Shown one piece after another: positions 12,734 through 62,700 of a stretch of 64,000 nt of DNA. Position numbers and translations under genes: made by a program. Where the stretch lies: NCBI GenBank assembly GCA_028715175.1, contig JAQUSJ010000001.1, positions 546,386 to 610,385 of the forward strand, written 5' to 3'. The notes beneath the pieces were generated by a model. It saw nothing but the letters and a program-made list of their open reading frames with translations. It did not search any database and was not told the DNA's origin. The stretch is from Candidatus Daviesbacteria bacterium. Its GTDB lineage: Bacteria > Patescibacteriota > Microgenomatia > Daviesbacterales > UBA10151. Each line of letters begins with the position of its first letter. The stretch's first letter is position 1.

Positions 12734-12814
12734 GTCGAATCGTTAGATCCGCCTCCGCTTCGCTTCGGCCAGGTCTTCTACTTTCGGCCGAAACTCTAAA
12801 ATTGTCGAATGATA

Positions 12815-12835: not shown

Positions 12836-12865
12836 ATTAGCAAATACGTATAATTCATTCGTTAT

Positions 12866-13081: not shown

Positions 13082-13082
13082 T

Positions 13083-13913
13083 ATGACATCCTTTGATCAG
13101 TTTTTAAGTAAGTTGGAACAAAGTTTTAAAGGCAAGAACCCGATTATTTGCAGCGTATTAGCTAACGTTTTCTCTATGCGGATCATTGGCAACAAAACGC
13201 ATGGAGATCTTGCCGAAATTGCCCTTACTGAATACATCAATCAATTCGTTGACGGTTTTTCTGCACGTCATACCGGCAAGGAAAAATTTAGAGCAAAAGA
13301 ATTTGAGGAAGACATTAGAGTTAAAGATCTTAAGACGAAATCAGAAATTCCTGTGAGCATAAAAACTTATGGTGCTGGTCCATTGCAATTATCTACAAAT
13401 AAAGACGGTTCTATGTTTGCACTACTACAAAAGATTGTGAACGATCAAAACATTAGCGACATAGGTAAAATCAGAAAAATTTTGAATGGACGCTGTTTTG
13501 CAGATTTCAGCGCAGTAAATGTTCTTCCACTCATTTATAACGAGAGGCAAATGAATTTCAAAATTGTGGTGTTTAACTTAATTCATGCTTATCAATCTGT
13601 TAGACAAATCAAATTTTTCCCGCCAAGAAGATTGGGATCTAAACAAACATTCCCTATATATAAATTCTATACTGGAAAGGGGCAATACATTTTTGAAGTA
13701 AGATACGGTGGAGTAAGTGCTAATGCACTACAAAGAGGTATGTGGACACACACGGAAAATGCTAATCCCTACTTTAGGGAACTGCTTGCAGGCTCATATA
13801 GAATCAATGAGCCATTAATCAATTTAATTTCAAAGATCCTTGTTTCTCCAAAAGAGAAGCACGAAGAAATATTGAAGCTATTCCCGAAATCTAAAGAAAA
13901 ATCTGTAATATAA
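13083..13913 (+). CDS. Putative Type II restriction endonuclease
   Basis: 276-aa orphan ORF lying between the C-protein and methyltransferase genes in an operon. No conserved domain recognised; the call rests on position only. Confidence 0.45.
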   Translation: MTSFDQFLSKLEQSFKGKNPIICSVLANVFSMRIIGNKTHGDLAEIALTEYINQFVDGFSARHTGKEKFRAKEFEEDIRVKDLKTKSEIPVSIKTYGAGPLQLSTNKDGSMFALLQKIVNDQNISDIGKIRKILNGRCFADFSAVNVLPLIYNERQMNFKIVVFNLIHAYQSVRQIKFFPPRRLGSKQTFPIYKFYTGKGQYIFEVRYGGVSANALQRGMWTHTENANPYFRELLAGSYRINEPLINLISKILVSPKEKHEEILKLFPKSKEKSVI

Positions 13914-13967
13914 CTCTCGATATATATAATACCCGGTTTCTGCTAAAATAATAACGAGGATATTGAC

Positions 13968-17782: not shown

Positions 17783-17803
17783 AGTCTATGGTAATATCTT
17801 TAC

Positions 17804-19476: not shown

Positions 19477-19499
19477 TATCCCACCCCAGGGGTGGGATA
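19477..19499. terminator. Perfect 11-bp-stem hairpin (tatcccacccc-a-ggggtgggata) between convergent genes; candidate bidirectional terminator, but no clear U-tract
   Basis: Palindrome read directly; it lies 18 nt after the stop of 17804..19459 and 18 nt before the stop of 19517..20425. Confidence 0.35.
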
Positions 19500-29737: not shown

Positions 29738-30031
29738 TTAAACTAAATAAACTTCCGTACCTGGTTTTGTGGGTTGATCTACTTTCAGGCCAAATGAATC
29801 TCCTTTTTTGACAGAATCTACATCTTGGTGATCTACCTGCAGACTGTCAATTTTTTGAACAAACTCTTCATCTCCTCTTTTAAATTTAACTTCATCTCCT
29901 ACTTTCAACCCGCCTGATTCCAAATCCACAATAGCCACTCCTAACTTATCATAGTAGTGAACAACTTTGCCTATAGATTTACTATCTTTACAGCAACCAT
30001 CTCCTGATTTATCCAAATTTATCACCTCCAA
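29738..30031 (-). CDS. Hypothetical small protein (beta-barrel-like)
   Basis: 97 aa with Gly/Lys-rich repeated KVGDEV / KKGDSF motifs. Confidence 0.4.
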   Translation of the reverse strand: MEVINLDKSGDGCCKDSKSIGKVVHYYDKLGVAIVDLESGGLKVGDEVKFKRGDEEFVQKIDSLQVDHQDVDSVKKGDSFGLKVDQPTKPGTEVYLV

Positions 30032-30150
30032 TTCTAATTATTCTGTACACATTATACCTTAAATACTCCAATAAGGTATGGTATTGACTATGATTTAAAA
30101 GTATGCCAACAATGGAAGTAGAGTTTTTAAAAAGAGGAGGTGATAAATAC

Positions 30151-30345
30151 ATGAATACAAAACAACTGGTAGCTTGGATATTAGTGCTTGGTGCTCTTAA
30201 CATGGGATTGGTTGGACTTTTAGGCCTTAATGTTGTTGAGACAGTTTTAGGAGCTGGTACATTACTCACCAAAGTAGTCTACATGGTGGTAGGTTTGGCA
30301 GGGCTGTATAAAGCATATTGTTTGATTGGTGGGAAGTGTAAGTAA
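30151..30345 (+). CDS. DUF378-family small membrane protein
   Basis: MNTKQLVAWILVLGALNMGLVGLLGLNVV...VVYMVVGLAGLY matches the DUF378 pattern. RBS aggagg lies 10 nt upstream of ATG 30151; the table ORF starts earlier, at 30103. Confidence 0.55.
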   Translation: MNTKQLVAWILVLGALNMGLVGLLGLNVVETVLGAGTLLTKVVYMVVGLAGLYKAYCLIGGKCK

Positions 30346-30387
30346 AAAATATATTGGCTAGCCGATATATTTTGGTAATTATTTAAA

Positions 30388-30416
30388 ATCCGGCCGTTTA
30401 TCGGCCGGATTTTTTG
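30388..30416 (+). terminator. Rho-independent terminator (9-bp stem atccggccg / cggccggat, loop tttat, then T5)
   Basis: Read directly; it follows the DUF378 gene and its T-tract abuts the 3' end of the tRNA-Gly(GCC) gene on the opposite strand. Confidence 0.6.
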
Positions 30417-30489
30417 GAGCGGGAGACGGGATTCGCACCCGCGACCTCCTACTTGGCAAGCAGGCATTCTGCTACTGAACTACTCCCGC
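30415..30489 (-). tRNA. tRNA-Gly (anticodon GCC)
   Basis: Reverse complement GCGGGAG TA GTTC AGTAGCA GAAT G CCTGC TTGCCAA GTAGG AGGTC GCGGG TGCGAAT CCCGT CTCCCGC T CCA. The D-stem contains a G-T pair. Confidence 0.7.
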
Positions 30490-30511
30490 ACTTCATCCGC
30501 CTCTGGCGGAT

Positions 30512-30760
30512 TCAGTGTAAACTATCGACCAATTTCTGTTTTTTAACTCTAGACCAACCCTTAATCTCTTTTTCTCTCTTAGCTGCAAGATATCTGTCTT
30601 TAAACCTTTCCCAATAAACCAGCCTAACAGGTATCTTGCTTAGCTGTAAACAACTCTTAATTCTACTATTATGCTCCTTTATTCTTCTTTTAAGATCCCA
30701 CGTTATCCCCGTATACAAAGACTCATCTTTACATCTTAGTATGTATGTAAACCAAGCCAT
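30512..30760 (-). CDS. GIY-YIG nuclease-family small protein
   Basis: MAWFTYILRCKDESLYTGITWDLKRRIKEHN... is a GIY-YIG motif (YIL...LYTG). The table ORF begins upstream at 30865; the internal start at 30760 matches family length (~83 aa). Confidence 0.6.
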   Translation of the reverse strand: MAWFTYILRCKDESLYTGITWDLKRRIKEHNSRIKSCLQLSKIPVRLVYWERFKDRYLAAKREKEIKGWSRVKKQKLVDSLH

Positions 30761-30889
30761 AGAGCAGTTTACACAGAGCGAAGCGAAGTGTGCCTCGACC
30801 CAGAATCGGACTGAGATAATCCGCTCTTCAGGCGGACGCCTTGACCACGTTGGCAATCGAGGCAAACTTAAGAAGATTTTACCACATAA

Positions 30890-32674
30890 TTATTTAACTG
30901 TAACGCTTTTAGCTATGTTTCTGGGTTTGTCTACATTATGACCTAATTCCACAGCCATATAATAAGCCAGAAGCTGCAAGGGGATTATATTCATGATGGC
31001 AGAGGTTTCACCGGTATCCGGAACAGGAATATAGTGGTCAAAGACAGCACAGGCAGCGGGAGAAATGCCGATTACTGTTGCACCTCTTGCCTTAACCTGA
31101 TTGACTGCATTTATCACGTCATCCCTGGCCAAATCCTCCGATACCACCGCAATCACCGGCACGCCTTTTTCCATCAAGGTTATTGCATAGTGCTTTAAAT
31201 CTCCTGCGGGGATACCATGAGCATGTATGTATGATCCTTCTATTATTTTAACCATTCCTTCACTGATAATATTAAAATTTTGATATTTGCCCAGCAGAAA
31301 GATATCTTTATGTTTAGCTAAAATTTTTGCCAGATTCTTAATCGTTTCGTGGTTTGCATTTGTATTCAAGTATTTATCCATCTCCTCAACTAACTTTTTT
31401 AAGTTAACCCTTCCTTCTTTGCTTTTTCCGCTTGCCACTTTTGCTATCAGATATCCCCAGGCAATTTGTGAGGTAAAAACTTTAGTGGACATCACACAAA
31501 TCTCCGGTCCTGCGTGCGCAGAATACGGGTGATCGGAAATACGCGCCATAGTAGAACCCGGCATATTAACATACGAAGCAATCTTAACACCTTTCTTTTT
31601 GGCAATTTCTAAAACTTCCAAAACATCTGCTGTTTCACCGGATTGTGAAGGAGCAATTATCAAGTCATCCTTGGTTAATAAATCATAGTAGTCATACATA
31701 TCAGCGCCTATGACGCTTCTTGCGTTAACTTGAGCAAATACCCGAAGGTAAAAAGCGACCTCCGATGCGGCGATGCCGGCTGTACCAGACCCGATTGTGT
31801 AGACATTTTTGGCTTCTTTTAATGTTTTGATGAAATCCTCGTATAACTTAAAGTCTTGATTTAAAACCTGACTGACAACATAAGGGCTCTCATGAATTTC
31901 CTTAAGCATGAAATGATCATAACCTTCTTTATCAACTTTGCTGTTTTTAAAATCAATCTTCTCTAAATGATAAGGCAAATCTTTGTTGGACTTGATATCC
32001 CTAAGTTGCAGCTTGCCATTCCAGGTTATCATCTGCCCGTTTTCTACAACTAGTATTCTGTTTACATAAGGAGCAAACGATAGCGTGTCGGAAGAGAAAA
32101 ATATCTCTTCACCATTAACTCCCACCACCAAAGGGGAACCGTTTCGGCAAGCTATAATCCGGCCCGCTTTTGTCACAAGAATAATGGTATTTCGTCCCTC
32201 CAATTCTAAAAACGCCAGCCTCACCGCTTCCTTTAAATCTACTTTCCCACTCGTCAAGTGGGAAGCTGTTTTTAATTTATCTTCTATTAGTCGAACAATC
32301 ACTTCTGTGTCTGTTTCTGTTTGAAATTTATAGCCTTTTTTTTGCAAAGCAGATTTCAACTTCTGATAATTTTCCACAATGCCGTTTTGCGCAAGGACAA
32401 AAGATTTGTCTGAAGAAAAATGCGGATGGGCGTTTGTGACATTTACCCCACCATGGGTAGCCCAGCGGGTATGACCAATCCCTGCATTGGATCTCGGCAG
32501 ATTAATGAGTTGGTTCAAGTCGCCAATCGCTCCAACTTTTTTGTCAATCTTGATCTGGTCTGCCACCACTGCAATACCCCAGGAATCGTAACCCCGATAT
32601 TCCAGCCTTTTTAAACCTTCCAGAATAACTTCAGAAGCATTTTTTGATCCAATATAGCCAAATATTCCACACAT
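30890..32674 (-). CDS. glmS: Glutamine--fructose-6-phosphate aminotransferase
   Basis: N-terminal MCGIFGYIG (Cys1 nucleophile), two SIS domains, 594 aa. It contains a family-2 palindromic insert encoding ASHLTSGK. Confidence 0.9.
   Translation of the reverse strand: MCGIFGYIGSKNASEVILEGLKRLEYRGYDSWGIAVVADQIKIDKKVGAIGDLNQLINLPRSNAGIGHTRWATHGGVNVTNAHPHFSSDKSFVLAQNGIVENYQKLKSALQKKGYKFQTETDTEVIVRLIEDKLKTASHLTSGKVDLKEAVRLAFLELEGRNTIILVTKAGRIIACRNGSPLVVGVNGEEIFFSSDTLSFAPYVNRILVVENGQMITWNGKLQLRDIKSNKDLPYHLEKIDFKNSKVDKEGYDHFMLKEIHESPYVVSQVLNQDFKLYEDFIKTLKEAKNVYTIGSGTAGIAASEVAFYLRVFAQVNARSVIGADMYDYYDLLTKDDLIIAPSQSGETADVLEVLEIAKKKGVKIASYVNMPGSTMARISDHPYSAHAGPEICVMSTKVFTSQIAWGYLIAKVASGKSKEGRVNLKKLVEEMDKYLNTNANHETIKNLAKILAKHKDIFLLGKYQNFNIISEGMVKIIEGSYIHAHGIPAGDLKHYAITLMEKGVPVIAVVSEDLARDDVINAVNQVKARGATVIGISPAACAVFDHYIPVPDTGETSAIMNIIPLQLLAYYMAVELGHNVDKPRNIAKSVTVK
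32244..32267. repeat. Family-2 in-frame palindromic element (TTCCCACT-cgtca-AGTGGGAA-gct) inside glmS
   Basis: 8-bp stem / 5-nt loop; encodes ASHLTSGK on the minus strand, at a site where GlmS homologs are about 5 residues shorter. Confidence 0.8.
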
Positions 32675-32702
32675 GTTATTCAGGGATTATATCATGTACA
32701 CC

Positions 32703-36872: not shown

Positions 36873-36899
36873 ACTAGTGACTAGTGACTGGTGACTAGT
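36873..36899. repeat. Tandem TGACTAG / ACTAGT (SpeI-site) triple repeat: actagtgactagtgactggtgactagt
   Basis: Read directly; intergenic, immediately upstream of murT. Confidence 0.5.
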
Positions 36900-36911
36900 T
36901 ATAATGCCCAT

Positions 36912-38270
36912 ATGAAACTCATTCTAGCTATTCTTCTAGGTAAACTAATCCTTTTTCTCACGCGTAATTTTAAAATCGGAGGAGGCTCAGCTGCTCCGGG
37001 TTTATATGCCCTGTCTATTGAACCGGATCTGGTTGCAAAATTAGCTGCTAAAATCCCCAAAAATGTAGTGATAACCGGAACTAACGGCAAAACTACTACT
37101 GCCAAAATGCTGGCCCATTTTGCGAAAGAAACAGGGCTTAAAGTTATCAGAAACCATACCGGTTCCAATCTTGAACGCGGTATCGCCTCAGCTTTTATTC
37201 AAAACCTCCGTTTACACCCCAAGGGTGTAAAGCTAAACCATGATATTGGCATTTGGGAACTGGATGAAGCAGCTTTTAATGCCGTTGCCCCAAAACTGCA
37301 ACCTGACATTGTTGTATTTTTGAATGTCTTCCGTGATCAACTTGACCGTTATGGTGAAATTGATACTGTAATCAAAAACTGGTACCAGGCGTTAAAAAAA
37401 CTCTCTTCGGAAACTGCGGTTTTAGTTAACGGCGACGATGCCAACATATTAAAACTGGCTGCCTGTTTTAGAGGTAAAGTTCAAACATTCGGGGTTCAAA
37501 ATTGCAAAATCGCGGGGGAGGAAATTGAGCGTCAAAAAGAACAGGAAAACCTTGATTTTGAAGCAAAAAATGTCAAAACAAGCGGATTAACCGGCAGTTT
37601 ATTTCAATTAACTATTAACAATGAACTATTAACTGTTAACCTACCTCTTCCCGGTATCTACCATATCTATGATTTTTTGGCTGCCTTTACTACAGGAACA
37701 ATATTAAATATAGATCCTGATAAAATGGTTTTGTCCTTGAAAACCTATTCACCTGCCTTTGGCAGGGTCGAGAAATTCCATTTAAACCCTACGTTTCATC
37801 GTACTCCTACCTCCGAGGTAGAATACATGGGGTATATTTTCCTGATCAAAAATCCGGCCGGAGCTACCCAGGTCTTTAAAACTATTGCGCCAAATATCAA
37901 ACCCGGGGACAGAATCCTTCTGGCATTAAATGACAACATTGCGGACGGTACAGACGTATCATGGATCTGGGATGCGAATTTCGAATCACTTCGAAATTCG
38001 TCGAATCTTTCTGAACGAGCGCAGTCGAGGGACTATACAATAATTACTTCTGGAATCAGAGCAAATGATCTGGCGCTCCGCTTGAAATATGCCAATTTTA
38101 ATCCTAAAGAAATAGTTGTAGAACCGGACCTGAAACAGGCCCTGAAACAAGCTGGAGTGGGCTTAAAAGGCAAATTGTTCATCCTTCCCACATATACTGC
38201 CATGCTGAAACTGCAATCAATCCTGACTAAAGCCAGCATCAAGAAACATTACTGGGAGGAGGATAATTAG
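36912..38270 (+). CDS. murT: Mur-ligase-family protein, MurT-like (lipid II isoglutaminyl synthase ligase subunit)
   Basis: VVITGTNGKTTTAKML is the Mur ligase P-loop; the C-terminal DUF1727-like region is followed by a GatD-like partner gene. The table ORF uses GTG 36891; ATG 36912 (MKLILAIL) is preferred. It contains a family-1 palindromic insert encoding LRLHPKGVKL. Confidence 0.65.
   Translation: MKLILAILLGKLILFLTRNFKIGGGSAAPGLYALSIEPDLVAKLAAKIPKNVVITGTNGKTTTAKMLAHFAKETGLKVIRNHTGSNLERGIASAFIQNLRLHPKGVKLNHDIGIWELDEAAFNAVAPKLQPDIVVFLNVFRDQLDRYGEIDTVIKNWYQALKKLSSETAVLVNGDDANILKLAACFRGKVQTFGVQNCKIAGEEIERQKEQENLDFEAKNVKTSGLTGSLFQLTINNELLTVNLPLPGIYHIYDFLAAFTTGTILNIDPDKMVLSLKTYSPAFGRVEKFHLNPTFHRTPTSEVEYMGYIFLIKNPAGATQVFKTIAPNIKPGDRILLALNDNIADGTDVSWIWDANFESLRNSSNLSERAQSRDYTIITSGIRANDLALRLKYANFNPKEIVVEPDLKQALKQAGVGLKGKLFILPTYTAMLKLQSILTKASIKKHYWEEDN
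37209..37237. repeat. Family-1 in-frame palindromic element, copy 2, inside murT
   Basis: Identical 29-mer; encodes RLHPKGVKLN. Confidence 0.8.
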
Positions 38271-43816: not shown

Positions 43817-44857
43817 ATGCAGGATAAAATTTCCCAGATTAAAAAAGAGTATTTAGAAAAAATTGGTAAAGCTTCAAGTTTAAAAGAGCTGGACAGTCTT
43901 TTTTTGGCGCTTTTTGGAAAAAAAGGCGAGATTGCGCTTTTGCCAAAAGAGTTCCCCAAACTTTCAGATACGGAGCGGAGGAAAATCGGACCTGCGTTTA
44001 ATGCTGTCAAACAGGAGCTGGAAAAAGCAATAGAAAAAAAAAGGGAAGAGGTTAGAGAAGAGTCTTACAAAGCACTGGAAAATGAAAAACTTACTCTCCA
44101 AGGCGTCCCCCTGGAGGCTAGGAAGGGACATCTGCATCTGGCTACCCAATTTAAAAAAGAAATTATTGACCTGTTCAACAAATTAGGCTTTTATCAATTT
44201 GATGCTCCACACGTAGAATGGGATAAATATAATTTTGAATACCTGAATATCCCCAAGGATCACCCTTCCCGCGATATGTGGGATACGCTGTATGTAGATA
44301 CCTCCCGGCTGGAAGTTGAACCCGGGCAAATGCTGCTGCGCACCCATACTTCTAACTTTTGGCCGAGATTAATGGAGAAAGGCAAAGCTCCGATTAGAGC
44401 GATGAGTTTTGACCGCTGTTTTAGATACGAAGCAATTGATGCAAGACATTCACACACCTTTAACCAGTTTGAGGTGGCAGTTGTCGGCGAAAAGATAACT
44501 ATGGCTAATTTAAAATTCCTATCTGATTATCTTCTCAAAGCAATTTTGGGCAAAGAGGCCAAGTCTAGATTCAGGCCAAAATATTACCCATTTGTTGAAC
44601 CAGGAGTTGGAATAGATTGCCTGTGTGTATTTTGTCATGGACGCGGTTGTAAAATCTGTTCCGGAACAGGCTGGTTTGAAATAGCAGGAGCAGGCATGAT
44701 TCATCCGAATGTTTTTAAGTCTACAGACCTGGATCCTAAAAAATATACCGGTTTAGCTTGGGGTTTTGGACCTGACAGAATGCTAATGATAAAACATGAG
44801 ATAGAAGATATCAGATATTTCCTGGAAGGAGACCTAAAGTTCCTGCAAGAGTATTAA
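43817..44857 (+). CDS. pheS: Phenylalanine--tRNA ligase alpha subunit
   Basis: Class II motifs: FRPKYYPFVEPG, FNQFE, GAGMIHPNV...GLAWGFGPDRM. Confidence 0.9.
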   Translation: MQDKISQIKKEYLEKIGKASSLKELDSLFLALFGKKGEIALLPKEFPKLSDTERRKIGPAFNAVKQELEKAIEKKREEVREESYKALENEKLTLQGVPLEARKGHLHLATQFKKEIIDLFNKLGFYQFDAPHVEWDKYNFEYLNIPKDHPSRDMWDTLYVDTSRLEVEPGQMLLRTHTSNFWPRLMEKGKAPIRAMSFDRCFRYEAIDARHSHTFNQFEVAVVGEKITMANLKFLSDYLLKAILGKEAKSRFRPKYYPFVEPGVGIDCLCVFCHGRGCKICSGTGWFEIAGAGMIHPNVFKSTDLDPKKYTGLAWGFGPDRMLMIKHEIEDIRYFLEGDLKFLQEY

Positions 44858-44861
44858 TCTT

Positions 44862-46559
44862 ATGAGAGTTTCACTTTCCTGGCTCAAAGAATTAGTTGAT
44901 TATAAACTATCTCCTCAAGAACTGGCAGATAAATTGTCGCTTATTTCCATTGGAATAAAAAATCAAACACAAGACTCTCTGGAATTAGATTTAACATACA
45001 ATCGGGGTGACTTACTTTCCATGCGCGGAGTAGCCAGAGAAGTAGCTGCTGTAACAGGCTCTAAGCTATTATTTTCAAACCTCAAACCACCTACTTATCC
45101 TTGTTTGCCTGAAACCCCGGTACAAGTTGACAATAAAAGTCTTTGTCCGGTTTATTGTGTAGCTAAAATTGAAGGCATTAAGATTGAGCCATCGTCCGAT
45201 CAATGGGTAAAAAAATTAACGGATTGCGGTGTCAGATCTGTCAATAATATTGCTGATGTCACTAATTTGATCATGCTTGAGTATGGCCAACCCATGCATG
45301 CCTTTGATGCATCTCAAGTCAAAGACGGGATGCTGATTGTGAGAACTGCCAGGCAGGGTGAAAAAATTATGACACTTGATGGAAAGGATCGAATTTTAGA
45401 TGAAACTGACTTATTAATTGCGGATTCAGAAAAAGCTCTGGCGCTTGCCGGAGTAATGGGAGGAAAAGATTCTGAAATTACGCAAACTTCAACAACTATT
45501 CTCCTGGAGGCAGCCATTTTTGATCCTGTTTCCAATAGGAAAAGTTCTAAAAAACATGGCCTTTATTCTGAAAGCACAAAAAGATTCCAGCATGGCCTAA
45601 CTAAAACTAACTTGCTCCAGGCTCTTTCTGCTGCCATAAAAATGTATGAAGGTTTGGGTGGAAAACTGACTGCCATTACACTTACGGGAAACCTTCAGGA
45701 TCAAGTAAAAACCATCCAACTGACCCAGCAAAAGATCAATTCATTAATCGGGGTAGACATTCCATCAGGGGAGGTAGAATCATCCCTCAAAAAACTAGGA
45801 TTTAGACTAGAAGCAAAACACCTCGAAGGTGAAAAAATGCGATTACACCTTCGAGGTGGAATGGTTTGGGAAATAACAGTGCCTTATTGGAGACTGGATA
45901 TAGAAATTGAGGAGGATCTGATAGAAGAAGTAGCCAGAATGTATGGGTATGAAAAAATCCCCCCAAAAGCGCTTGAAGGGAATCTTCCGGAGAAAATCGA
46001 TCAAAGTTTTCCCAATTTTATTTATGATTTGAAAAAATCCTTAAAAGAGGCAGGTTTAACAGAAGTACAAACATATTCTTTTTATTCAACAAAAGTAATT
46101 GAAATCCGCCAGCTGGCGGAGAAAACTGAAAACTTAATTAAGATTGCTAATCCTATTTCATCTGAAACCGAGTATTTAAGGGACAATCTTTGGCCAAATC
46201 TGTTAGAAGTAGCTGCCAAAAATATCAGGAACGGAATAAAAGATATAGCTATTTTCGAGGTAGGCAAAGTGTATGCGCCACAAAAAGGTGATTTACCAAA
46301 AGAAACCTACCGATTGGCGATTGCTTTAGTAAACGGCACAGATAATCCCATCCAGGAGCTTAGTCAAATCTCCCAAAGTTTAGGATTACACCCCAAGGGT
46401 GTAATCGGGGGTTTACAGCTAAACCCAAGAGAATATTTTCATCCAACAAGGTATACAGATGATATAGCCGAAATTCACCCAAGATTTGTGAATAAATTCG
46501 GGATTGATCAAAGAGTGGCTGTTTTGGAAATAGAATTAAATCCTCTAACGAGGCCCTGA
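44862..46559 (+). CDS. pheT: Phenylalanine--tRNA ligase beta subunit (short, 565 aa), with two in-frame palindromic inserts
   Basis: N-terminal MRVSLSWLKELVDY; B3/4 and B5 regions present. Inserts at 45819..45858 (HLEGEKMRLHLRGG) and 46386..46423 (LHPKGVIGGLQLN). Confidence 0.85.
   Translation: MRVSLSWLKELVDYKLSPQELADKLSLISIGIKNQTQDSLELDLTYNRGDLLSMRGVAREVAAVTGSKLLFSNLKPPTYPCLPETPVQVDNKSLCPVYCVAKIEGIKIEPSSDQWVKKLTDCGVRSVNNIADVTNLIMLEYGQPMHAFDASQVKDGMLIVRTARQGEKIMTLDGKDRILDETDLLIADSEKALALAGVMGGKDSEITQTSTTILLEAAIFDPVSNRKSSKKHGLYSESTKRFQHGLTKTNLLQALSAAIKMYEGLGGKLTAITLTGNLQDQVKTIQLTQQKINSLIGVDIPSGEVESSLKKLGFRLEAKHLEGEKMRLHLRGGMVWEITVPYWRLDIEIEEDLIEEVARMYGYEKIPPKALEGNLPEKIDQSFPNFIYDLKKSLKEAGLTEVQTYSFYSTKVIEIRQLAEKTENLIKIANPISSETEYLRDNLWPNLLEVAAKNIRNGIKDIAIFEVGKVYAPQKGDLPKETYRLAIALVNGTDNPIQELSQISQSLGLHPKGVIGGLQLNPREYFHPTRYTDDIAEIHPRFVNKFGIDQRVAVLEIELNPLTRP
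45819..45858. repeat. Family-3 hairpin element (cacctcgaaggtg-N14-caccttcgaggtg), in-frame inside pheT
   Basis: 13-bp perfect stem; encodes HLEGEKMRLHLRGG. Confidence 0.6.
46386..46423. repeat. Family-1 in-frame palindromic element, copy 3 (variant with a 12-nt tcgggggtttac internal duplication), inside pheT
   Basis: ttacaccccaagggtgtaa + tcgggggtttac + agctaaa; the extra 12 nt keep the frame (LHPKGVIGGLQLN). Confidence 0.75.
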
Positions 46560-51257: not shown

Positions 51258-53063
51258 CTATCTGCATACCGGAGTTTTAACCCGGCCAAATTTTTGGCCT
51301 AAACGTAAAACTAAAGTCAGAAAAAAGTAATAAAATTTTCCATGGTAGTGTTTTGAGGATTCTATTAAATGCTCGTTAGCTTTTTCCTGACCAATCCTTT
51401 TGGTGGAACCACCATGGAAATGGATAAATTTGGCTGATGGAACAAAATAAATCGGTATCCCAAAGGCTTTAAGCCTCCTGGCATACTCAATATCCTCAAA
51501 GAAGATAAATGTTTCCTCGTTCAATAAACCAACCCTGTTTAAAATTTTTCTCGGAATTAAAAGACACGCCATTACCAATCCTTCAACTTTATACCACCTG
51601 GGAGGTGGGCTTTGACTCCTCCCAGGTGAATCAGGCAAAAACATGAAATATGAACCTTTTTGGGCAAGGAAATATTCTTTAAAAGCACCAGATAAAGTAG
51701 GGAGATGAAAAGCAGAGTCTTGGTCACTCGTGTCCGGAAACACTAATTTTCCACCCAAAACAGCGCTACCTCCAAATTCATCTTCAGCTTTTACCAACTC
51801 CGAAATCCCGTTTTTTAAAACTTCTATATCAGAATTAAACATCAAGTAATATTCACCCAGGGAAAACCTGATTGTCTTGTTATAACCTTTGGTAAACCCC
51901 TCATTCTCTTGATTTTGTAAATATTTAATCTTGGGCAGAAACTCTTTGATGACATCCTTGCAAGGATCAGTTAAACCATTATCCAAAACAATCACTTCCA
52001 TGTCACTGGGGCGAAAGCCGGAATCTATATTAAAAATACTTTCTAAAAGTTTCTTAGTTAGATCTGGCGTATTGTAATTAACTATGCCTATCGACAGCTT
52101 AAGCGGATACTCTGCATTCCCACTCGTCAAGTGGGAAGCTAAATTTCCATTACCTGTTACCCCTAAATAAAAATCCAAAATACCTCTTCTTTGAACAGGC
52201 CTGCCAAAAATCAAAAGCTTAACCGCCTCTCGAACCAGGGCAAATCTGGTCCTCAATCTTCCGTATTGCATGCCAAAAATTAACCTGTTCCTGGTGTGAT
52301 AATAATCTGTTATCTTGGAACCAATGCCGGTTGAGCTGGAAACTTTGTGGTAAACCGCTACTTGACCATTGTAGTAAGTTTTGAATCCATTGTCTTTGGC
52401 TCTTTTTACAAAATCACTATCCTCAAAATACAGAAAATATCTCTCATCAAATCCGCTCTCCGGCGGAGCGATTTTTTCCATGACTTCTTTTTTAATCAGG
52501 ACGCATGCACCGCTAATGATTTCCGCCTCTTCAACCTTATCGTATTGTCCCTTATCTACCTCATCAATTCCGCGGTGAATGGAGCCGATATTATCCCAGT
52601 CAAATCTTCCTCCCGCATACCAGATAATCCGGCCTGAATCCTGCTTCTTGTACCTGTCCCTATGAAACTCAAAACCAGGTGCAAAGTAAATCTTGGGGGA
52701 AACCAGACCAATTTTAGGATCAAACTGCGCTGTTTTCACCAGTTCTGAAGTTAAATTAGAATCTTTTATCAAACAGTCATTGTTGATGAGTAAAAAATAA
52801 TCTGCCCCCCAAATTCTGGCATATTCAACGCCTCGGTTGTAACCGCCAGCAAATCCCAAATTTTCTCCGGTTTGTAAAATATCAACCTCCGTAAATCTTT
52901 TTCTGATCTCAGAAACACTTCCATCCCAAGAGCCATTATCTACCACAATAGTTCGTAGTTTGTAGTTTGTAGTTTGTAGTTTGCCAAGAGATTCCAGAAA
53001 TTCCAGCGTATCTTTTTTACCATTATAATTTACAGTAATAATTGCAATTTTAGTCATATTCAT
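51258..53063 (-). CDS. Tandem double family-2 glycosyltransferase (two GT2 domains), with a family-2 palindromic insert in the inter-domain linker
   Basis: Domain 1 IAIITVNYNGKKDT...VVDNGSWDGS; domain 2 LSIGIVNYNTPDLT...VLDNG; the linker NLASHLTSGN is encoded by 52117..52140. Confidence 0.8.
   Translation of the reverse strand: MNMTKIAIITVNYNGKKDTLEFLESLGKLQTTNYKLRTIVVDNGSWDGSVSEIRKRFTEVDILQTGENLGFAGGYNRGVEYARIWGADYFLLINNDCLIKDSNLTSELVKTAQFDPKIGLVSPKIYFAPGFEFHRDRYKKQDSGRIIWYAGGRFDWDNIGSIHRGIDEVDKGQYDKVEEAEIISGACVLIKKEVMEKIAPPESGFDERYFLYFEDSDFVKRAKDNGFKTYYNGQVAVYHKVSSSTGIGSKITDYYHTRNRLIFGMQYGRLRTRFALVREAVKLLIFGRPVQRRGILDFYLGVTGNGNLASHLTSGNAEYPLKLSIGIVNYNTPDLTKKLLESIFNIDSGFRPSDMEVIVLDNGLTDPCKDVIKEFLPKIKYLQNQENEGFTKGYNKTIRFSLGEYYLMFNSDIEVLKNGISELVKAEDEFGGSAVLGGKLVFPDTSDQDSAFHLPTLSGAFKEYFLAQKGSYFMFLPDSPGRSQSPPPRWYKVEGLVMACLLIPRKILNRVGLLNEETFIFFEDIEYARRLKAFGIPIYFVPSAKFIHFHGGSTKRIGQEKANEHLIESSKHYHGKFYYFFLTLVLRLGQKFGRVKTPVCR
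52117..52140. repeat. Family-2 in-frame palindromic element inside the double-GT2 gene linker
   Basis: Identical 24-mer to the glmS copy; encodes ASHLTSGN. Confidence 0.8.
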
Positions 53064-53075
53064 AAATCATAAATC

Positions 53076-53993
53076 TTAAATCACTTTTAAACCTTCCAAA
53101 TAAACTCTGGCCCTTTTAGTTTTCCCTAAAACAGAAAAGGCGATTATTCTCAAGAGTAAACCGATGATTAAAAATAGTTTTACCAACCAATAAAAAGTTC
53201 TATAATGTTTTTTCAAATAAAACTTAATGCCTTTTAATTCATTGATAAAACTGGAACTTAAGTCAAAACTTGTGCTGGCTCCATGGAGATGAACCACCTC
53301 AATACGAGGAACATACCAAATTTTAAACTTGGCATCCTTGATTCTTTTACACCATTCTACTTCTTCCATATGCATAAATAAATTCTCGTCAAAACCGCCA
53401 ACTTTACTGTAAATTTCTCTTTTCAGCATAAAAAAAGCGCCCATAACCCAACCAACTTGATGAGCTTTGGAGAAAAACTTTCTATCTCTTGGATGAAAAG
53501 AAGCAGCCAATCTGTTGATGAAAGGTATTAGACTTAAACCAAAAATCCAAAAAAATATATTTAAAGGGGTAGGCAAATTACCGCAACTCGGCTGAAGTTC
53601 TCCGCTTGCATAATTTAATCTGGCGCCCAGGGAGTCGCAATTTAAATTAACCCTAAAGTAAGCCAGCGCTTTATATAAACTCTCTTCCTCAACGTAAACA
53701 TCGGAATTAAGCAGTAGAATATACGGATACTTAGACTGCCTCAAACATACATTATTTCCCTTGCTAAATCCCAGATTTTCCTTTGAAATAATCAATTTTA
53801 CCCGGGGATATTCTGATTTTATAAGACCAACTGAACCGTCGGAAGATCCGTTATCCAAAACTATCACTTCAATTTTATTACCCAGTCTTTTTTCACAATA
53901 GCTTTTGGCTTGCTCAAGCTTAATAAGACACCTGCGAGTTATGTCTTTTGTATTAAAGCTCAAAATGATAACTGATAAATCTAAATTATTCAT
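53076..53993 (-). CDS. Family-2 glycosyltransferase
   Basis: LSVIILSFNTKDITRRCL...VLDNGSSDGS. Confidence 0.8.
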   Translation of the reverse strand: MNNLDLSVIILSFNTKDITRRCLIKLEQAKSYCEKRLGNKIEVIVLDNGSSDGSVGLIKSEYPRVKLIISKENLGFSKGNNVCLRQSKYPYILLLNSDVYVEEESLYKALAYFRVNLNCDSLGARLNYASGELQPSCGNLPTPLNIFFWIFGLSLIPFINRLAASFHPRDRKFFSKAHQVGWVMGAFFMLKREIYSKVGGFDENLFMHMEEVEWCKRIKDAKFKIWYVPRIEVVHLHGASTSFDLSSSFINELKGIKFYLKKHYRTFYWLVKLFLIIGLLLRIIAFSVLGKTKRARVYLEGLKVI

Positions 53994-54990
53994 ATCTTAA
54001 CCCTGTAATTATCCTAAATTTTCTGTAATGCTCCAAAAGTTTAATTCCCCAAAGTACAAAATCACGGAATAGGGGAGGATATTTTTTGTAGTAGTGTTTT
54101 TTATAAAAAATCCTCATGGCAGAAACACCATGAACGGCAATTTTTAACCTTTTTTCTTTACTCACTTTTAACGCCGCTGTTTTCCAAAGACCCGAAGATG
54201 AACCTTTATAATGAATGATTTTTACTTCAGGATAAAAATAAATCTTCCAGCCTTTCATCTTTAGGCAGTAACAAAACTCGATATCCTCACCATTCCAGAA
54301 ATAATCCGTATCCCACCAGTTAATTTGATCTCCGGCAATTTTTCTAACCAGCAGAAATGCCCCTGTTGCACAGTCAATCTCGTGGGCTTTTCTAACGTCA
54401 AGATAAGAAACGGTATATCCGGAAAAAATAGGGGAGCGAGGAAAGAGTTTGGAAAGACCGGAAAAAAACATCAATGAATTCCATGGGGTAGGAAAACCCC
54501 TGTGACAGGAATAATCCAGTCTTCCGTCCGGTAATTCAACTCTACAAGTTAAAGCCCCATAATCGGGGTTGGAAAACAAAACTTCCAGCGATTTTTGGAT
54601 TACATGATCCACTATAACCGTATCCGGATTCAAAAATAAAACAACAGGAGCTTTGGCATATTTAACCCCTACATTGTTTCCGGCAGCGAATCCTAAATTC
54701 TCTCTATTTTCCACCAATTCAACTACGTTCCCACTTGACGAGTGGGAAGCTGTTTTGTATTTTTCTTTTACGGCTTCTACTGACCCATCAGAAGAAGCAT
54801 TATCCACCACAATTACCTGCCATCTATCCAGTTCACCTTTGCTTTGGAAAATAGATTCCAGACACCTCAGTAGCAGATCTTTGACATTATAGTTTAGGAT
54901 AATGATGGACAGCTCAGGATTTTCTAGACTTACCATGTAGGAATTATTGTATAACGACAGAAGTTTAATTACCAATCTAGAATTTGACAA
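53986..54990 (-). CDS. Family-2 glycosyltransferase, with a family-2 palindromic insert (ASHSSSGN)
   Basis: LSIIILNYNVKDLLLRCLESI...VVDNASSDGS; insert at 54728..54751. Confidence 0.8.
   Translation of the reverse strand: MSNSRLVIKLLSLYNNSYMVSLENPELSIIILNYNVKDLLLRCLESIFQSKGELDRWQVIVVDNASSDGSVEAVKEKYKTASHSSSGNVVELVENRENLGFAAGNNVGVKYAKAPVVLFLNPDTVIVDHVIQKSLEVLFSNPDYGALTCRVELPDGRLDYSCHRGFPTPWNSLMFFSGLSKLFPRSPIFSGYTVSYLDVRKAHEIDCATGAFLLVRKIAGDQINWWDTDYFWNGEDIEFCYCLKMKGWKIYFYPEVKIIHYKGSSSGLWKTAALKVSKEKRLKIAVHGVSAMRIFYKKHYYKKYPPLFRDFVLWGIKLLEHYRKFRIITGLRYE
54728..54751. repeat. Family-2 in-frame palindromic element (opposite orientation, loop tgacg) inside a GT2 gene
   Basis: Reverse-complement form of the 24-mer; encodes ASHSSSGN; shares the 3' flank gctgtttt with the glmS copy. 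Confidence 0.8.
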
Positions 54991-55020: not shown

Positions 55021-55734
55021 ATGCCAACAGAAAGACCAGCGCTTACAAAAGAACAAGTTGCTCAGGCGGAAAGCAGGATAGGAATCACTCATCCTGTGCT
55101 TACTGTAATAGAAAACCATCTTCCTACACTCATTCAGCTCAGTAACGATTATCCCAAAACAAGCGATAATCAAGGACAAAGTCAATATATAAGAGAGCAT
55201 TACGGATTCCTGGCTGATGCATTTGTAGAAGCAGGTCCATACACTCTTGAACCACTCGATCTCATTGCAATTTGGTCTCGCGTAACAAGAGGAGTATTTC
55301 CATTATACGCCCGATACAGACTAGCTGGTATGGTTTCAAGTATCTATGCAATTCAAGGTGTTGAAAACCCAGAGTGGAGAAAATTCCCGAGACATTATCT
55401 TGAAACAGGTGAGTTACCTGAATGTGTCACAAGAGATAGAGGCGGATTACTATATGTGCAAAGTAGATTAAGACAGATTGGCGAAAGCCTAGAAGATATA
55501 GATTTCTATATTTATGGTACTAGAGAACCAGCTATGTCTTATGCCTTCCAGCTAGCCAAAAGAGAGGCAGAGGGCGACGAGGAGGCAAAGAAAAAGCTAG
55601 AAGCTTTGATACTTCATGAAAAAACTCATACGACACCGATATTAAGCGAACTTCTTGAGAATTTTGGCAATGGCTATGTGTCTCTCTACTGGCCAATCGA
55701 GAAGACCTTAGGAGTTCTAATTGAGACTACCTAA
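55021..55734 (+). CDS. Hypothetical protein
   Basis: 237-aa ORF; no motif. Confidence 0.45.
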   Translation: MPTERPALTKEQVAQAESRIGITHPVLTVIENHLPTLIQLSNDYPKTSDNQGQSQYIREHYGFLADAFVEAGPYTLEPLDLIAIWSRVTRGVFPLYARYRLAGMVSSIYAIQGVENPEWRKFPRHYLETGELPECVTRDRGGLLYVQSRLRQIGESLEDIDFYIYGTREPAMSYAFQLAKREAEGDEEAKKKLEALILHEKTHTTPILSELLENFGNGYVSLYWPIEKTLGVLIETT

Positions 55735-56137
55735 CTCTGTGGCGGCGTTTGACCCTAAGTTGGGCCAGGGATTTTTGCAGATTTGCAAAAGTCTCTGCAT
55801 ATTCTTCATCAGATAAAGTTTGGGTTAATGCTACCTCAGCCCGTTTTTTGGCTTCTTCAACAGCTCGTTCATCTATATCTGTGGCATAAGTTGCCAGATC
55901 TGTCATCACAGTCAAAGTATTATCCGCCACCTGCAAAAACCCGTCTCCGATTGCCATGGAATCTGCTTTGCCGTTTTTTTTAATCACCAGTTCTCCGGGT
56001 GAGAGCCTGGCCATCAAATTAGCATGATGGGGGAGTATGCCGATTTGCCCTTGCTGGGTTGAAACATTAACTTGTGAGACTTCCTCATCAAAAATAAGAC
56101 TTTCAGGAGTAACAATTTTCAACTGTAGCGAAGCCAT
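55727..56137 (-). CDS. atpC: ATP synthase F1 epsilon subunit
   Basis: LQLKIVTPESLIFDEEVSQVNVSTQQGQIGILPHHANLMARL. Confidence 0.85.
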   Translation of the reverse strand: MASLQLKIVTPESLIFDEEVSQVNVSTQQGQIGILPHHANLMARLSPGELVIKKNGKADSMAIGDGFLQVADNTLTVMTDLATYATDIDERAVEEAKKRAEVALTQTLSDEEYAETFANLQKSLAQLRVKRRHRVR

Positions 56138-56171
56138 ATATGATATTATACATTATTGTCTGGTGCGAAAT

Positions 56172-56540
56172 ATGAACATTCATACTTGCGAAGCAATTAT
56201 TGTCACCTGTATAGATTTTCGGTTTCAGGAATATATAAACAATTGGATTGCGGAAAATTTTGCAGCTAAAACATATGATAGGGTAGCAATAGCAGGAGGG
56301 GTATTTGATTTGGATTATATGTTAAAACAAGTGGATATCTCACGCACGCTGCACCATATTAAAAAAGTTATTTTAATAAACCACGAAGACTGTGGAGCAT
56401 ACGGAGAAGAAGGAACCCATGAACGGCATATCCAGGACTTGGAAGTTGCAAAAAATCAAATAGTAAATCTTGATAAAAACTTAAAGGTAGAAACAATTTA
56501 TCTTCACCTTGACAGCACTTTTGAAAAAGTCTCCAGCTAG
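56172..56540 (+). CDS. Beta-carbonic-anhydrase-like small protein (CxDxR / HxxC zinc-ligand motifs), antisense insert between atpD and atpC
   Basis: VTCIDFRF (CxDxR) and INHEDCGAYG (HxxCG). The table ORF starts at 56037 and overlaps atpC, so the internal ATG 56172 is used (122 aa, shorter than typical beta-CA). Confidence 0.4.
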   Translation: MNIHTCEAIIVTCIDFRFQEYINNWIAENFAAKTYDRVAIAGGVFDLDYMLKQVDISRTLHHIKKVILINHEDCGAYGEEGTHERHIQDLEVAKNQIVNLDKNLKVETIYLHLDSTFEKVSS

Positions 56541-56839: not shown

Positions 56840-58210
<1,371 letters not shown>

Positions 58211-58213
58211 TTA

Positions 58214-59155
58214 TTACTCCATAGCAAGCGCAGCCGTTGTTATTTCCAAAAGTTCTTTGGTAATTGAATCTTGTCGAGTTTGATTATAAGTAAGATTCAA
58301 ATCCTCCACAAGCTCTAAGGCACTGTCTGTGGCATTTTGCATAGCAATCATCCTGGCAGAATGTTCGGAAGCCTTAGTTTCCAGAAGAGACTGGTAAATT
58401 TTGATTTGAAGATGATGGACTAAAATATAATCCAATAATTTATCCGGATCCGGCTCAAAAAGAAATTCACTACCTCCTGTGTCATTCCCGCGCATGCGGG
58501 AATCTAATTCCGAACGAGACTCTTTTAATTGGATCCCTGCATCCGCAGGGATGACAGTTTCAAGATCAATGGGCAAGAGCTTAACTTTTAGGGCTTCCTG
58601 GCGGAGAGTTGAGCCGAAGTGAGGATAAACAATGTAAGCCTCTCCGATTTCTTTAGCTAAAAATGCATCCATCACCAGCTTTGCCAGCTGCGCTGCCTCT
58701 CTAAATGTCACTACATCCAAATTCTCAAAATCCGCCTGTAAATTTTTTCCGGACCTGGCTATAAAATTTCTGCCTTTCTTGCCAACCGTGTAAAAAACAG
58801 TATCAACAGAAAAAAATCCTGAAGCAGTTACTAACCTGAACAGATTAGTATTTAAAGCCCCGCACAGGCTTTTGTCTGTTGTCAGCAGAACCACTCCTGT
58901 TGTTTTTGTGTCGTTGCCGGAAAGCAAAGGATGAGATTCAATCTCTACCAAAGGCAAAAGCCTTTTTAAGGCTTCACCTAAATTAAAGCTGTAGGGCCTG
59001 CCGTTTAAAGCTTGGGATTGCGCCCGTTTCATTTTGGTTGCCGCCACCATCTGCATGGCTTTGGTAATCTGGGCTGTATTTTTAACAGACTTTATTCTTC
59101 TTCTTAGCTCTCTAGTGTTAGCCATAATGCTTAGTAATAAGTACAAAAGTAACAA
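58214..59155 (-). CDS. atpG: ATP synthase F1 gamma subunit with a ~25-aa insertion encoded by two palindromic elements
   Basis: N-terminal LRRRIKSVKNTAQITKAMQMVAATKMKRAQ. The insert VIPADAGIQLKESRSELDSRMRGNDTGG maps to the hairpins 58484..58503 and 58533..58552. Confidence 0.9.
   Translation of the reverse strand: MLLLYLLLSIMANTRELRRRIKSVKNTAQITKAMQMVAATKMKRAQSQALNGRPYSFNLGEALKRLLPLVEIESHPLLSGNDTKTTGVVLLTTDKSLCGALNTNLFRLVTASGFFSVDTVFYTVGKKGRNFIARSGKNLQADFENLDVVTFREAAQLAKLVMDAFLAKEIGEAYIVYPHFGSTLRQEALKVKLLPIDLETVIPADAGIQLKESRSELDSRMRGNDTGGSEFLFEPDPDKLLDYILVHHLQIKIYQSLLETKASEHSARMIAMQNATDSALELVEDLNLTYNQTRQDSITKELLEITTAALAME
58484..58503. repeat. Family-4 palindrome a (ATTCCCGC-gcat-GCGGGAAT) inside atpG
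   Basis: Perfect 8-bp stem / 4-nt loop; encodes DSRMRGN. Confidence 0.75.
58533..58552. repeat. Family-4 palindrome b (ATCCCTGC-atcc-GCAGGGAT) inside atpG
   Basis: Perfect 8-bp stem / 4-nt loop; encodes IPADAGI; same consensus ATYCCYGC-N4-GCRGGRAT as palindrome a. Confidence 0.75.
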
Positions 59156-59175
59156 GGCATAAGTTAGTTAACTTG

Positions 59176-60693
59176 TCACTTGTTACTTGTCTCTTTTTTA
59201 GCTCCTTTCATAAATATCCCTACAAATTCTTTAGTTATTTTCTCAAGTTCGCGAACTATCTTCTCATCCAATTCTTTCTTGGATGCTATTTCAGCAAGCA
59301 GTTTTTTCTCCCGAAGTTTAATATGAGCGATATACTTTTGTTCAAATTCCCGCACCTTATCAACTTCTATCTCATCCAAAAACCCGTTTGTGACTGCCCA
59401 AAGAGAAACCACTTGTTCTTCAACCGGAACAGGATTAAACGGAGCCTGCTTTAAGATTTCCGTAATCCTTTTTCCCCGTTCTATCTGGGATTTTGTGGCG
59501 GCATCCAAATCTGAGGAAAATTGGGCAAAAGCTTGCAAAGCCCTGAATTGGGCCAAATCTAACCGGAGTTTTCCTGCCACTGCCTTCATAGCTTTTATTT
59601 GAGCATCACCGCCAACCCTGGAAACAGATAAACCCACGTTAACAGCCGGCCTGATTCCGGCAAAAAACAGGTCTGATTCTAAATAGATCTGTCCATCGGT
59701 TATTGATATAACATTGGTCGGAATATACGCTGAAACATCACCTGCTTGTGTCTCAATAATCGGCAGGGCAGTAAACGATCCCCCTCCGAAGTCTTTGTTT
59801 AGTTTTGCAGCCCGCTCGAGTAATCTGGAGTGAAGATAAAATACGTCTCCGGGATAAGCTTCACGGCCTGACGGACGCCGAAGAAGCAGCGACATTTGTC
59901 TGTATGCCCAGGCATGTTTGGAAAGGTCATCGTAAATAATTAAAGCTTCCCTGCCTTGATCCATAAAATATTCACCCATGGCACAACCGCTGTATGGAGC
60001 CAGATACTGCATGGTGGCAGAATCAGAAGCGGAGGCGGAAACTACAATGGTGTGTTCCATGGCTCCGGATTCCTCCAATTTAGCTACCAGTTGGGCAACT
60101 TTGGAAGTTTTCTGACCGATTGCAACATAAATACAAATAACGTCTTTTTGATTAATAATCGTATCTATAGCAATGGTAGTTTTGCCGGTATTTCTATCAC
60201 CAATAATAAGCTCCCGCTGCCCCCGGCCAATCGGGATCATGGCATCAATTGCTTTAATGCCTGTTTGCAGCGGAGTATTGACTGATTGCCGGGTAATAAC
60301 ACCGGGCGCAATCTTTTCCACCGGGTAATGGTCTTTAACCTTGATTACCCCTTTACCGTCAATTGGATTGCCCAAAGCATCAACAACACGGCCAATTAAT
60401 TCTTTGCCAACCGGAACCTGTAAAACAGTACTTGTAGTTTTGACTTTGTCTCCCTCTTTTACTTTTGTAAAATCCCCAAAAATAACTGCCCCGACATTAT
60501 ATTGTTCCAAATTCAAAGCCAGGCCATAAATCCCATTACCAAAATCAATCAGTTCAGAGTATTGAACATCCGATAAACCTTCAATCCTTGCTACTCCGTC
60601 ACCAATTTCAGTAACCACACCCGCATTTTCTCTCTGAGCTTTAAGTTTAAGTCCTTTTATTTGATTTTCTATATCGGCAATTAAATCAGCCAC
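59176..60693 (-). CDS. atpA: ATP synthase F1 alpha subunit
   Basis: GDRNTGKTT (P-loop); 505 aa. Confidence 0.95.
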
Positions 60694-62618: not shown

Positions 62619-62700
62619 GATTCTCTCCTGTCATCCCGTACTTGATACGGGATCTATATAGATATTGTGCTTGAATTCCCAACATTTTACAAGAAGAAAA

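Follow-up and report, generated by a model that had tools for sequence, protein, structure and literature searches.

A probable CGTC-1 palindromic repeat as in-frame insert of an ATP synthase γ gene from Candidatus Daviesbacteria

Introduction

Rickettsia palindromic elements (RPEs) were reportedly presented by Ogata et al. in 2000 as "selfish DNA in protein-coding genes". A comparable case is described here for a stretch of 64,000 nt from a Candidatus Daviesbacteria genome (contig JAQUSJ010000001.1, positions 546,386 to 610,385), hereafter called the window, from whose first letter all coordinates are counted. Inside atpG, the gene of the γ subunit of the F1 ATP synthase, lies a 77-bp composite palindrome that is very probably a non-autonomous repeat resembling repetitive extragenic palindromes (REPs), belonging to the CGTC-1 class (dRS3/RPE-6), arranged as an inverted dimer and carried in frame as a tolerated passenger. 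Nothing relevant on this phenomenon in the candidate phyla radiation (CPR) or in atpG was found in the literature, which was incompletely covered.

The closest described system is the group of CGTC-tagged REPs defined by Di Nocera, De Gregorio and Rocco (2013, BMC Genomics 14:522; PMC3733652). According to their definition, the terminal tag of a CGTC-1 unit is CGTC, which has often become TGTC. The stem measures 8 bp and opens with AT, the loop has 4 nt, and the short tail is CCA in most cases. The units occur mostly as inverted dimers with spacers of 20–100 bp, and the class, with which no dedicated transposase is associated, was equated with dRS3 of Neisseria and RPE-6 of Rickettsia conorii. 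Intragenic CGTC dimers encode 20–30 amino acids, and the repeats are known in frame in many housekeeping genes; the supplementary table of the same study includes SIPAKAGIQTGPSMDSRLRGNA in PolI of Micavibrio and R. conorii proteins with ...LDSRFRGND (PMC3733652).

Two further systems invite comparison. In R. felis, 728 RPEs have been counted, 85 of which lie inside open reading frames (ORFs) (PMC1166351). Like the window element, RPEs are small palindromic repeats that are kept in frame in coding regions of small, gene-dense genomes; unlike it, RPE-1 is longer (~100–150 bp) and has an unrelated sequence, the CGTC class takes in RPE-6 and RPE-4 alone, and the Rickettsia hosts are intracellular alphaproteobacteria. 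REP doublets forming hairpins (REPINs), which are mobilised by REP-associated tyrosine transposases (RAYTs) (Bertels and Rainey 2011, PMC3116915; RAREFAN preprint 10.1101/2022.05.22.493013), also consist of two inverted REP units with a short spacer and are likewise non-autonomous, and the window element can fold as one long hairpin. Their tag, however, is GTAG, and they are linked to a RAYT gene, present once and bordered by the repeats, whereas the tag here is TGTC/CGTC. With this tag, and with no Y1_Tnp or RAYT among the 61 ORFs of the window, an assignment to the REPIN/RAYT system was rejected. A classical miniature inverted-repeat transposable element was rejected as well: inverted ends are present, but there is no target-site duplication and no related insertion sequence was seen.

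Anatomy of the composite element

The original prediction drew attention to two palindromes, ATTCCCGCgcatGCGGGAAT at 58484–58503 and ATCCCTGCatccGCAGGGAT at 58533–58552. Read directly in the window sequence, both stand exactly at these positions, and both are, as it had described them, perfect 8-bp stems with a 4-nt loop. A search with the proposed consensus ATYCCYGC-N4-GCRGGRAT, allowing up to two mismatches, returned two matches in 64 kb, both in atpG, where dinucleotide-preserving shuffles expect 0.15 and none of 100 shuffles reaches two. GC-rich hairpins with a stem of at least 8 bp number nine in the window versus 0.35 in shuffles. While the hairpins themselves thus hold, their treatment as two separate elements does not, as both are arms of one larger inverted repeat (58480–58509 and 58527–58556, two 30-nt stretches that are 80% complementary and 17 nt apart), which reads TGTCATTCCCGCGCATGCGGGAATCTAATT ... 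AATTGGATCCCTGCATCCGCAGGGATGACA over its 77 bp.

This composite element, TGTCAT...ATGACA (58480..58556; unstranded, as are its parts), is an inverted dimer of two REP-like units with their TGTC tags facing outward. Unit 1 (58484..58503) has the 8-bp stem ATTCCCGC/GCGGGAAT and the loop GCAT, preceded by the tag TGTC at 58480–58483 and followed by the tail CTA, and encodes DSRMRGN in gene sense. Unit 2 (58533..58552) has the 8-bp stem ATCCCTGC/GCAGGGAT and the loop ATCC, after which comes GACA (58553–58556), the reverse complement of TGTC; its tail on the gene strand is CCA, and it encodes IPADAGI. The 29-nt spacer between the units (58504..58532, tails included) encodes QLKESRSEL. Its conservation extends to copies in further genomes and in different genes (L202, L201, L208, P0154 and P0144, all described below). 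The inner 75 nt (58481–58555) correspond to 25 codons of atpG on the minus strand, V191–D215, with the peptide VIPADAGIQLKESRSELDSRMRGND; on the gene strand, from 58555 down to 58481, they read GTC ATC CCT GCG GAT GCA GGG ATC CAA TTA AAA GAG TCT CGT TCG GAA TTA GAT TCC CGC ATG CGC GGG AAT GAC. The length of ~25 residues originally proposed is therefore correct, and the peptide string given with it was one residue off.

In all these respects the element agrees with the published CGTC-1 units: both outer ends carry the TGTC variant of the tag, both perfect 8-bp stems begin with AT, both loops have 4 nt, the tail is CCA on one unit and CTA on the other, and the spacer of the inverted dimer falls within 20–100 bp. 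The agreement extends to the in-frame intragenic position with a coding length of 20–30 amino acids, to the peptide signature IPAxAGIQ ... DSRxRGND (here VIPADAGIQ...DSRMRGND) and to the lack of an associated transposase. The architecture is that of the inverted dimers in which dispersed repeats of this class often occur. Other metagenomic genomes carry the same unit in different genes, while the 64 kb read from this genome contain one dimer and one related single unit. The differences concern the host, since Candidatus Daviesbacteria (CPR/Patescibacteria) lies outside the five phyla surveyed in the defining study, the host gene, which is atpG, and the composition of the dimer, which is a heterodimer (stems ATCCCTGC and ATTCCCGC) with one CTA tail; moreover, other families of palindromes use this site in relatives.

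The sense-strand RNA of the element has a folding energy of −38.8 kcal/mol (z −4.35), and as DNA the element folds to two local hairpins (z −4.67). A scan of 58000–59200 against Rfam at a permissive threshold gave chance-level matches only, and no Rfam model corresponds to the element.

Host gene and protein loop

The host gene (58214..59125, minus strand) encodes a γ subunit of 303 amino acids, in which PF00231 (Pfam ATP-synt) covers residues 3–302 at 1.9e-83. Among solved γ chains, 2qe7_G is matched at 3.6e-49, and an exact match in the protein collection is annotated as ATP synthase F1 subunit gamma of a Candidatus Daviesbacteria metagenome-assembled genome (MAG) on a 743,708-bp contig. The atp operon has the order atpB-(E)-F-H-A-G-D, and the genes of the a, b, delta, alpha, beta and epsilon subunits are present. 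A length of 313 amino acids had been stated for this protein, a figure that counts from an upstream in-frame TTG and is not borne out: the start is almost certainly the ATG at 59125 (MANTREL...), because all aligned homologues (44 of 44) begin with MANTREL.

The element is located between LLPI, at the end of the last beta strand, and FEPDP, at the start of the C-terminal helix, in the globular part of γ, where the original prediction had expected it. An AlphaFold run on the window protein with a 44-sequence alignment gave a normal γ fold (mean predicted local distance difference test, pLDDT, of 76), whose best match in the PDB by Foldseek is 5ik2_G (E 3e-19). Values of pLDDT below 50 are confined to two segments, residues 43–45 and the insert at 194–221, and the model is confident at the flanking strand (176–184) and in the C-terminal helix from residue 227 on. 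The insert is accordingly predicted by the model as a disordered, floppy loop of 25 residues.

The same point of the protein is occupied in chloroplasts and cyanobacteria. In spinach chloroplast γ, the redox/regulatory insert (6fkf_g, residues 229–287) is flanked by equivalent LLP[IL] and FE[PQ]DP motifs, which shows that this loop, the only one of γ for which such tolerance is known, accepts 20–50 extra residues. The likeness ends with the position: the chloroplast/cyanobacterial insertion is a conserved, structured redox/ADP-inhibition module with a Cys pair and a beta-hairpin, and without palindromic DNA. No sequence similarity was found between the window insert and the chloroplast γ insert, and the former has no Cys. 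With predicted disorder in addition, homology to the chloroplast insert was rejected despite the shared loop.

Relatives with and without the element

The in-frame insertion of about 25 residues by palindromic hairpin elements, as originally proposed, is supported both by the loops of homologues and by the DNA of relatives. Across 120 relatives of 280–338 amino acids, the segment from LLPI to EFLFEP is the hypervariable part of γ. The shortest relatives (280–282 amino acids) have ~13 residues in this loop, for example SLEELPHEESKSK in P0037, versus 33 in the window protein. The closest backbone relative, P0003 (locus L203), with 91% identity outside the loop (against P0001), has an unrelated loop that is non-palindromic and weakly structured. 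Part of this loop (L203, ~1770–1830) consists of imperfect tandem copies of the 7-mer CAAACGA/G, so that the loop also varies by simple-repeat slippage.

A metagenome scan for atpG relatives returned 80 loci, ~13 of which are Daviesbacteria-like. Three other assemblies, represented by loci L202, L201 and L121, have the element in the same position of atpG. In L202 (protein P0002) it is 88% identical over all 77 nt; in L201 (P0007) it contains a 27-nt extra piece nested in the spacer (L201 3598–3624); and in L121 its second hairpin is deleted. The extra piece of L201 has a 6-bp hairpin of its own, CTAGCT-CGCA-AGCTAG, and is thus a palindrome nested in a palindromic element. In the DNA alignments, the atpG flanks of the relatives are conserved up to TGTCAT. 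A check for close relatives that have the same γ but no palindromes, which would have pointed to ancient sequence, turned up none, because the palindromes are retained in the DNA of relatives that share the insert.

Copies in other genes and genomes

When the 30-aa peptide of the window was run in a full HMMER scan, 25 matches were returned, mostly spurious ORFs called across REP clusters, and only two of them were informative. P0154 is a UvrA fragment (Pfam UvrA_inter, 1.4e-23) that carries the unit in frame as ...DKS-VIPANAGIQLKKSGSELDSRLRGND-KKND, and in locus L208 the same 75-nt unit stands at the start (5′ end) of the pilin-like ORF P0144. Spacer included, the unit peptides are IQLKKSGSELDSR in P0154 and IQLKISRSELDSR in P0144. 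As it is found with its spacer in at least two unrelated genes, the 75-nt dimer is a dispersed unit and is not confined to atpG. When proteins were searched by word index with a profile of the duplicated 25-aa peptide, 17 short spurious ORFs came up, and even known γ subunits were missed.

The distribution of single units was surveyed with the exact pattern GTCATTCCCGC-N4-GCGGGAAT in one genome per species, a census whose copy numbers per genome and taxonomic range for the family are lower bounds. At least 120 loci in more than 20 phyla were found, Neisseria lactamica included, compared with a chance expectation of ~4 matches (an arithmetic estimate from 19 fixed bases, 596 Gb and uniform composition). 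Among the matches listed are Proteobacteria, Bacteroidota, Chloroflexota, Planctomycetota and Nitrospirota, the CPR groups Saccharibacteria, Paceibacteria, Parcubacteria, Uhrbacteria and Magasanikiibacteriota, and a Nanoarchaeota MAG. When forward and reverse matches within 300 bp were paired, at least 29 stretches resulted, mostly dimers of 66–137 bp with outward tags and variable spacers, and thus built like the window element; among the paired stretches listed, two are longer multi-unit arrays and two are single 26-nt units of which both ends match the pattern. For 174 units elsewhere, again among the matches listed, the base at −1 was tallied as C (64%) or T (33%) and the tail positions as C/C/A (94/84/84%), statistics that reproduce the published CGTC-1 definition. 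Other CPR and DPANN genomes carry CGTC-1 units in frame in GatB, in TGT (a full dimer), in a P-type ATPase and in a DNA methylase.

Cassette turnover at the γ loop

The loop of the related γ subunits holds more than one kind of palindrome. When the 120 proteins were sorted by peptide motif, family A, the one of the window element, was assigned to 12 of them (P0081 being a false positive of the regular expression, 11 are confirmed), family B (VIASxAKQS...PRND) to 15, family C (HLRGE...HLGGV) to 12, and families D (VILASEARPES...ARMT) and E (VILNVSEGS...QND) to seven each, while 67 have no recognised palindrome motif in the loop. TGTCAT opens all ten cassettes with readable DNA, four codons after LLPI in nine of them and two codons after it in L127, and ATGAC(A/G) closes eight of the ten. 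All ten are strongly self-complementary (−29 to −46 kcal/mol, z about −3 to −5), whereas motif-less loops mostly fold like shuffles (z 0.1 to −2.1), with L125 as an exception (−3.5).

The families alternate in nearly identical proteins. Outside the loop, P0002 (family A) and P0008 (family D) share 95.9% identity, as do P0007 (A) and P0023 (E), and P0007 and P0016 (C) share 94.8%. Hybrid cassettes are also present, such as that of L133, whose left end is of type E and whose right end is of type B. The atpG loop is therefore a hot spot, in which at least five palindrome families begin at the same TGTCAT even in backbones that are ~96% identical. The sequence pattern implies that turnover would proceed by cassettes being repeatedly inserted or replaced at a single nucleotide position, or by recombination on a very local scale, in combination with the filter of a permissive loop. 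Since near-identical γ subunits carry quite different cassettes or none, the element is read as a tolerated passenger and not as a functional module.

Palindrome-type peptides were also noticed at two other loops of γ (alignment columns 96–107 and ~160–173) in P0095, P0104 and P0113, where "EIAS...PRND" follows HPLLxG. P0095 (338 amino acids) has a second "SELDSRLRGND" before the YYTVG strand, and hence up to three repeat-derived inserts.

Origin of the element and alternative explanations

An in-frame CGTC-1 dimer tolerated as a passenger brings these observations together with high probability. On this view, the element would have come into atpG at a loop with tolerance for additional residues. 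Transcription and translation of the gene would include it, and its 25 residues would form a disordered loop on the surface, placed after the last strand of the globular domain and before the coiled-coil helix of the C terminus, where the function of the rotor would remain undisturbed. Against this background, the judgment that such hairpins are "remarkable if tolerated" appears overstated, as the class is known in frame in many housekeeping genes (PMC3733652), and it is weakened further by the fact that the loop is the most length-variable part of γ and the natural site of the chloroplast insert. The perfection of the stems may be due to the youth of the copies or to templated intrastrand correction of quasi-palindromes, and less likely to selection on the structure.

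How the element moves can be addressed only tentatively. It is possible that hairpin DNA in single-stranded form is moved in trans by an enzyme of the HUH/Y1 type (IS200/RAYT-like), or by a comparable one, and inserts beside a YGTC target or a resident unit, which would explain both the common TGTCAT start and the hybrid cassettes. A more speculative proposal, which we hold to be rather unlikely, is that TGTCAT is a true landing pad at which at least five YGTC-tagged families insert or replace one another at a single nucleotide of genes that are otherwise ~96% identical, so that filled, hybrid, decayed and empty alleles would reveal the target and mechanism of the CGTC class. In a bolder version of this proposal, selection in Daviesbacteria would act directly on this place in γ, in favour of locally strong structure or of a flexible loop.

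Several observations weigh against a mobile passenger. No transposase of any kind was found among the 61 window ORFs, which include only a large serine recombinase (9119–10789), and no target-site duplication flanks any of the four atpG copies in the DNA alignments. The 64-kb window contains only one such dimer and one related single unit (62629–62656), too few to speak for abundance within this genome, and we infer, rather than observe, the translation of the element. The neighbour-joining tree of loop-masked γ subunits, by which the interspersion of the families was judged, is crude and poorly resolved, and for this reason pairwise backbone identities were used for the turnover instead. Finally, the hairpins are well kept. 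Of the stem cells in five A-unit copies, 98.6% are paired, and the L202 stem ATCCCGAC/GTCGGGAT differs from ATCCCTGC/GCAGGGAT of the window by two compensatory pairs; both observations could mean selection on the hairpins, which a pure passenger model does not predict. As the change in L202 keeps the local stem and lowers the complementarity between the arms, it is the local hairpins that are kept, and not a long REPIN-like hairpin. Such maintenance fits recency, templated correction of quasi-palindromes or selection.

It could be supposed from this that the hairpins are a selected nucleic-acid element, either as structure in the atp-operon mRNA (for stability, processing or ribosome pausing between atpA and atpD) or as a DNA site of a host protein, with the peptide as a by-product. 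The strong folding of the element as RNA and as DNA, the stems that stay perfect in orthologous copies, with the two compensatory pairs of L202, and the strong structure of the unrelated cassette families at the same place would all be in line with this. Yet 67 of the 120 related γ subunits do without a recognisable palindrome, and those of them with DNA mostly fold like shuffles; L121 has lost one hairpin, the unit also occurs in unrelated genes and positions, and the covariation comes from one sequence, L202, with a score that is reached by 17 of 500 shuffles. Selection for the hairpins is thus considered improbable. Still less probable is that the insert is a functional regulatory loop of γ recruited from repeat DNA, in analogy to the ADP-inhibition/redox insertion of chloroplasts and cyanobacteria. 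Although it occupies exactly the same loop as the spinach insert, it has no similarity to the latter and is predicted to be disordered, and backbones of ~96% identity carry unrelated peptides or none, which means that no specific peptide is conserved.

Least of all can it be believed that there was no insertion, and that the segment is either native, ancient γ sequence that is palindromic by chance or an artefact of metagenome assembly. The genome is indeed a MAG, and the window contains a single dimer; but independent assemblies from other samples share the unit at the same site, the unit is found in other genes, its motif is that of a documented repeat family in more than 20 phyla, and solved γ subunits as well as the shortest relatives are without the insert. 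The tolerated CGTC-1 passenger thus remains the preferred explanation.

Other palindromes and genes in the window

One TGTC-tagged hairpin stands alone at 62629–62656. It reads GTCATCCCGTA-CTTGA-TACGGGATC (stem of 8 bp, loop of 5 nt, tail CTA), is a related unit of the CGTC class and lies in an 82-bp gap just upstream of the atpB start (62618), where the atp operon has its leader or promoter.

The window is ~88% coding, so that small elements mostly land in genes. Its long ORFs also contain, in frame, another six short palindromes, which belong to two different families. TTCCCACT-YGWCR-AGTGGGAA is present in three copies (32244–32264, 52117–52137 and 54728–54748), each followed by nGTAG or nGCAG on the gene strand, as in REPs of the GTAG-tagged type; the copies are read as "ASHLTSGK/N" or "ASHSSSGN" in GlmS (30890–32686) and in two GT2 glycosyltransferases (51258–53066 and 53986–54990). 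The second family, (T)TTACACCC-CAA-GGGTGTAA(A), also has three copies (18367–18387, 37211–37231 and 46384–46406), which encode "LHPKGV" in frame in a 554-aa tetratricopeptide repeat-like protein, a MurT-like ligase (36888–38270) and PheT (44838–46559). Two more strong hairpins lie outside the large ORFs: TATCCCACCCCAGGGGTGGGATA at 19477–19499, directly after the stop of the ORF 17795–19459, and one with a 12-bp stem, AAAATCCGGCCG-TTTAT-CGGCCGGATTTT at 30385–30413, which is followed by TT and resembles an intrinsic terminator.

Within the atp region, a putative carbonic anhydrase gene on the opposite strand (Pro_CA_2, 56037–56540) separates atpC (epsilon, 55727–56137) from atpD (56840–58210). 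An opposite-strand Pro_CA_2 gene also follows atpD in L201 and L202; in L201 atpC lies beyond it, and no atpC was called in the L202 stretch shown. Elsewhere, a cluster at 517–15161 resembles a mobile or defence island, with a DUF4365 gene, a 1091-aa ResIII/DEAD helicase (1317–4592), the large serine recombinase (9119–10789) and a D12 N6-adenine methyltransferase (13968–15161). At 29738–30865, a GIY-YIG nuclease ORF (30512–30865) adjoins two short ORFs, one of which is EF-Tu domain-2-like (29738–30031); this arrangement may be the remnant of a homing endonuclease or a split gene.

Significance

The kind of element described here is already known, namely REP/RPE palindromes that are read in frame as tolerated protein loops. 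What is new are the CPR host lineage, the host gene atpG, the loop as a hot spot, and a relative in which the stem is perfect by way of two compensatory pairs. Ultra-small, gene-dense CPR and DPANN genomes thus also carry a pan-bacterial class of repeats inside housekeeping genes, with in-frame examples in atpG, uvrA, gatB, tgt and the gene of a P-type ATPase. Such in-frame repeats affect gene calling, comparisons of protein length and claims of "novel insertions" in these lineages. The γ loop between LLPI and FEPDP is a naturally permissive insertion site and is useful for the engineering of rotor tags. Likewise, the turnover of cassettes at a single position in near-identical atpG genes provides a ready data set on the mobility of the CGTC class, for which no transposase is known.

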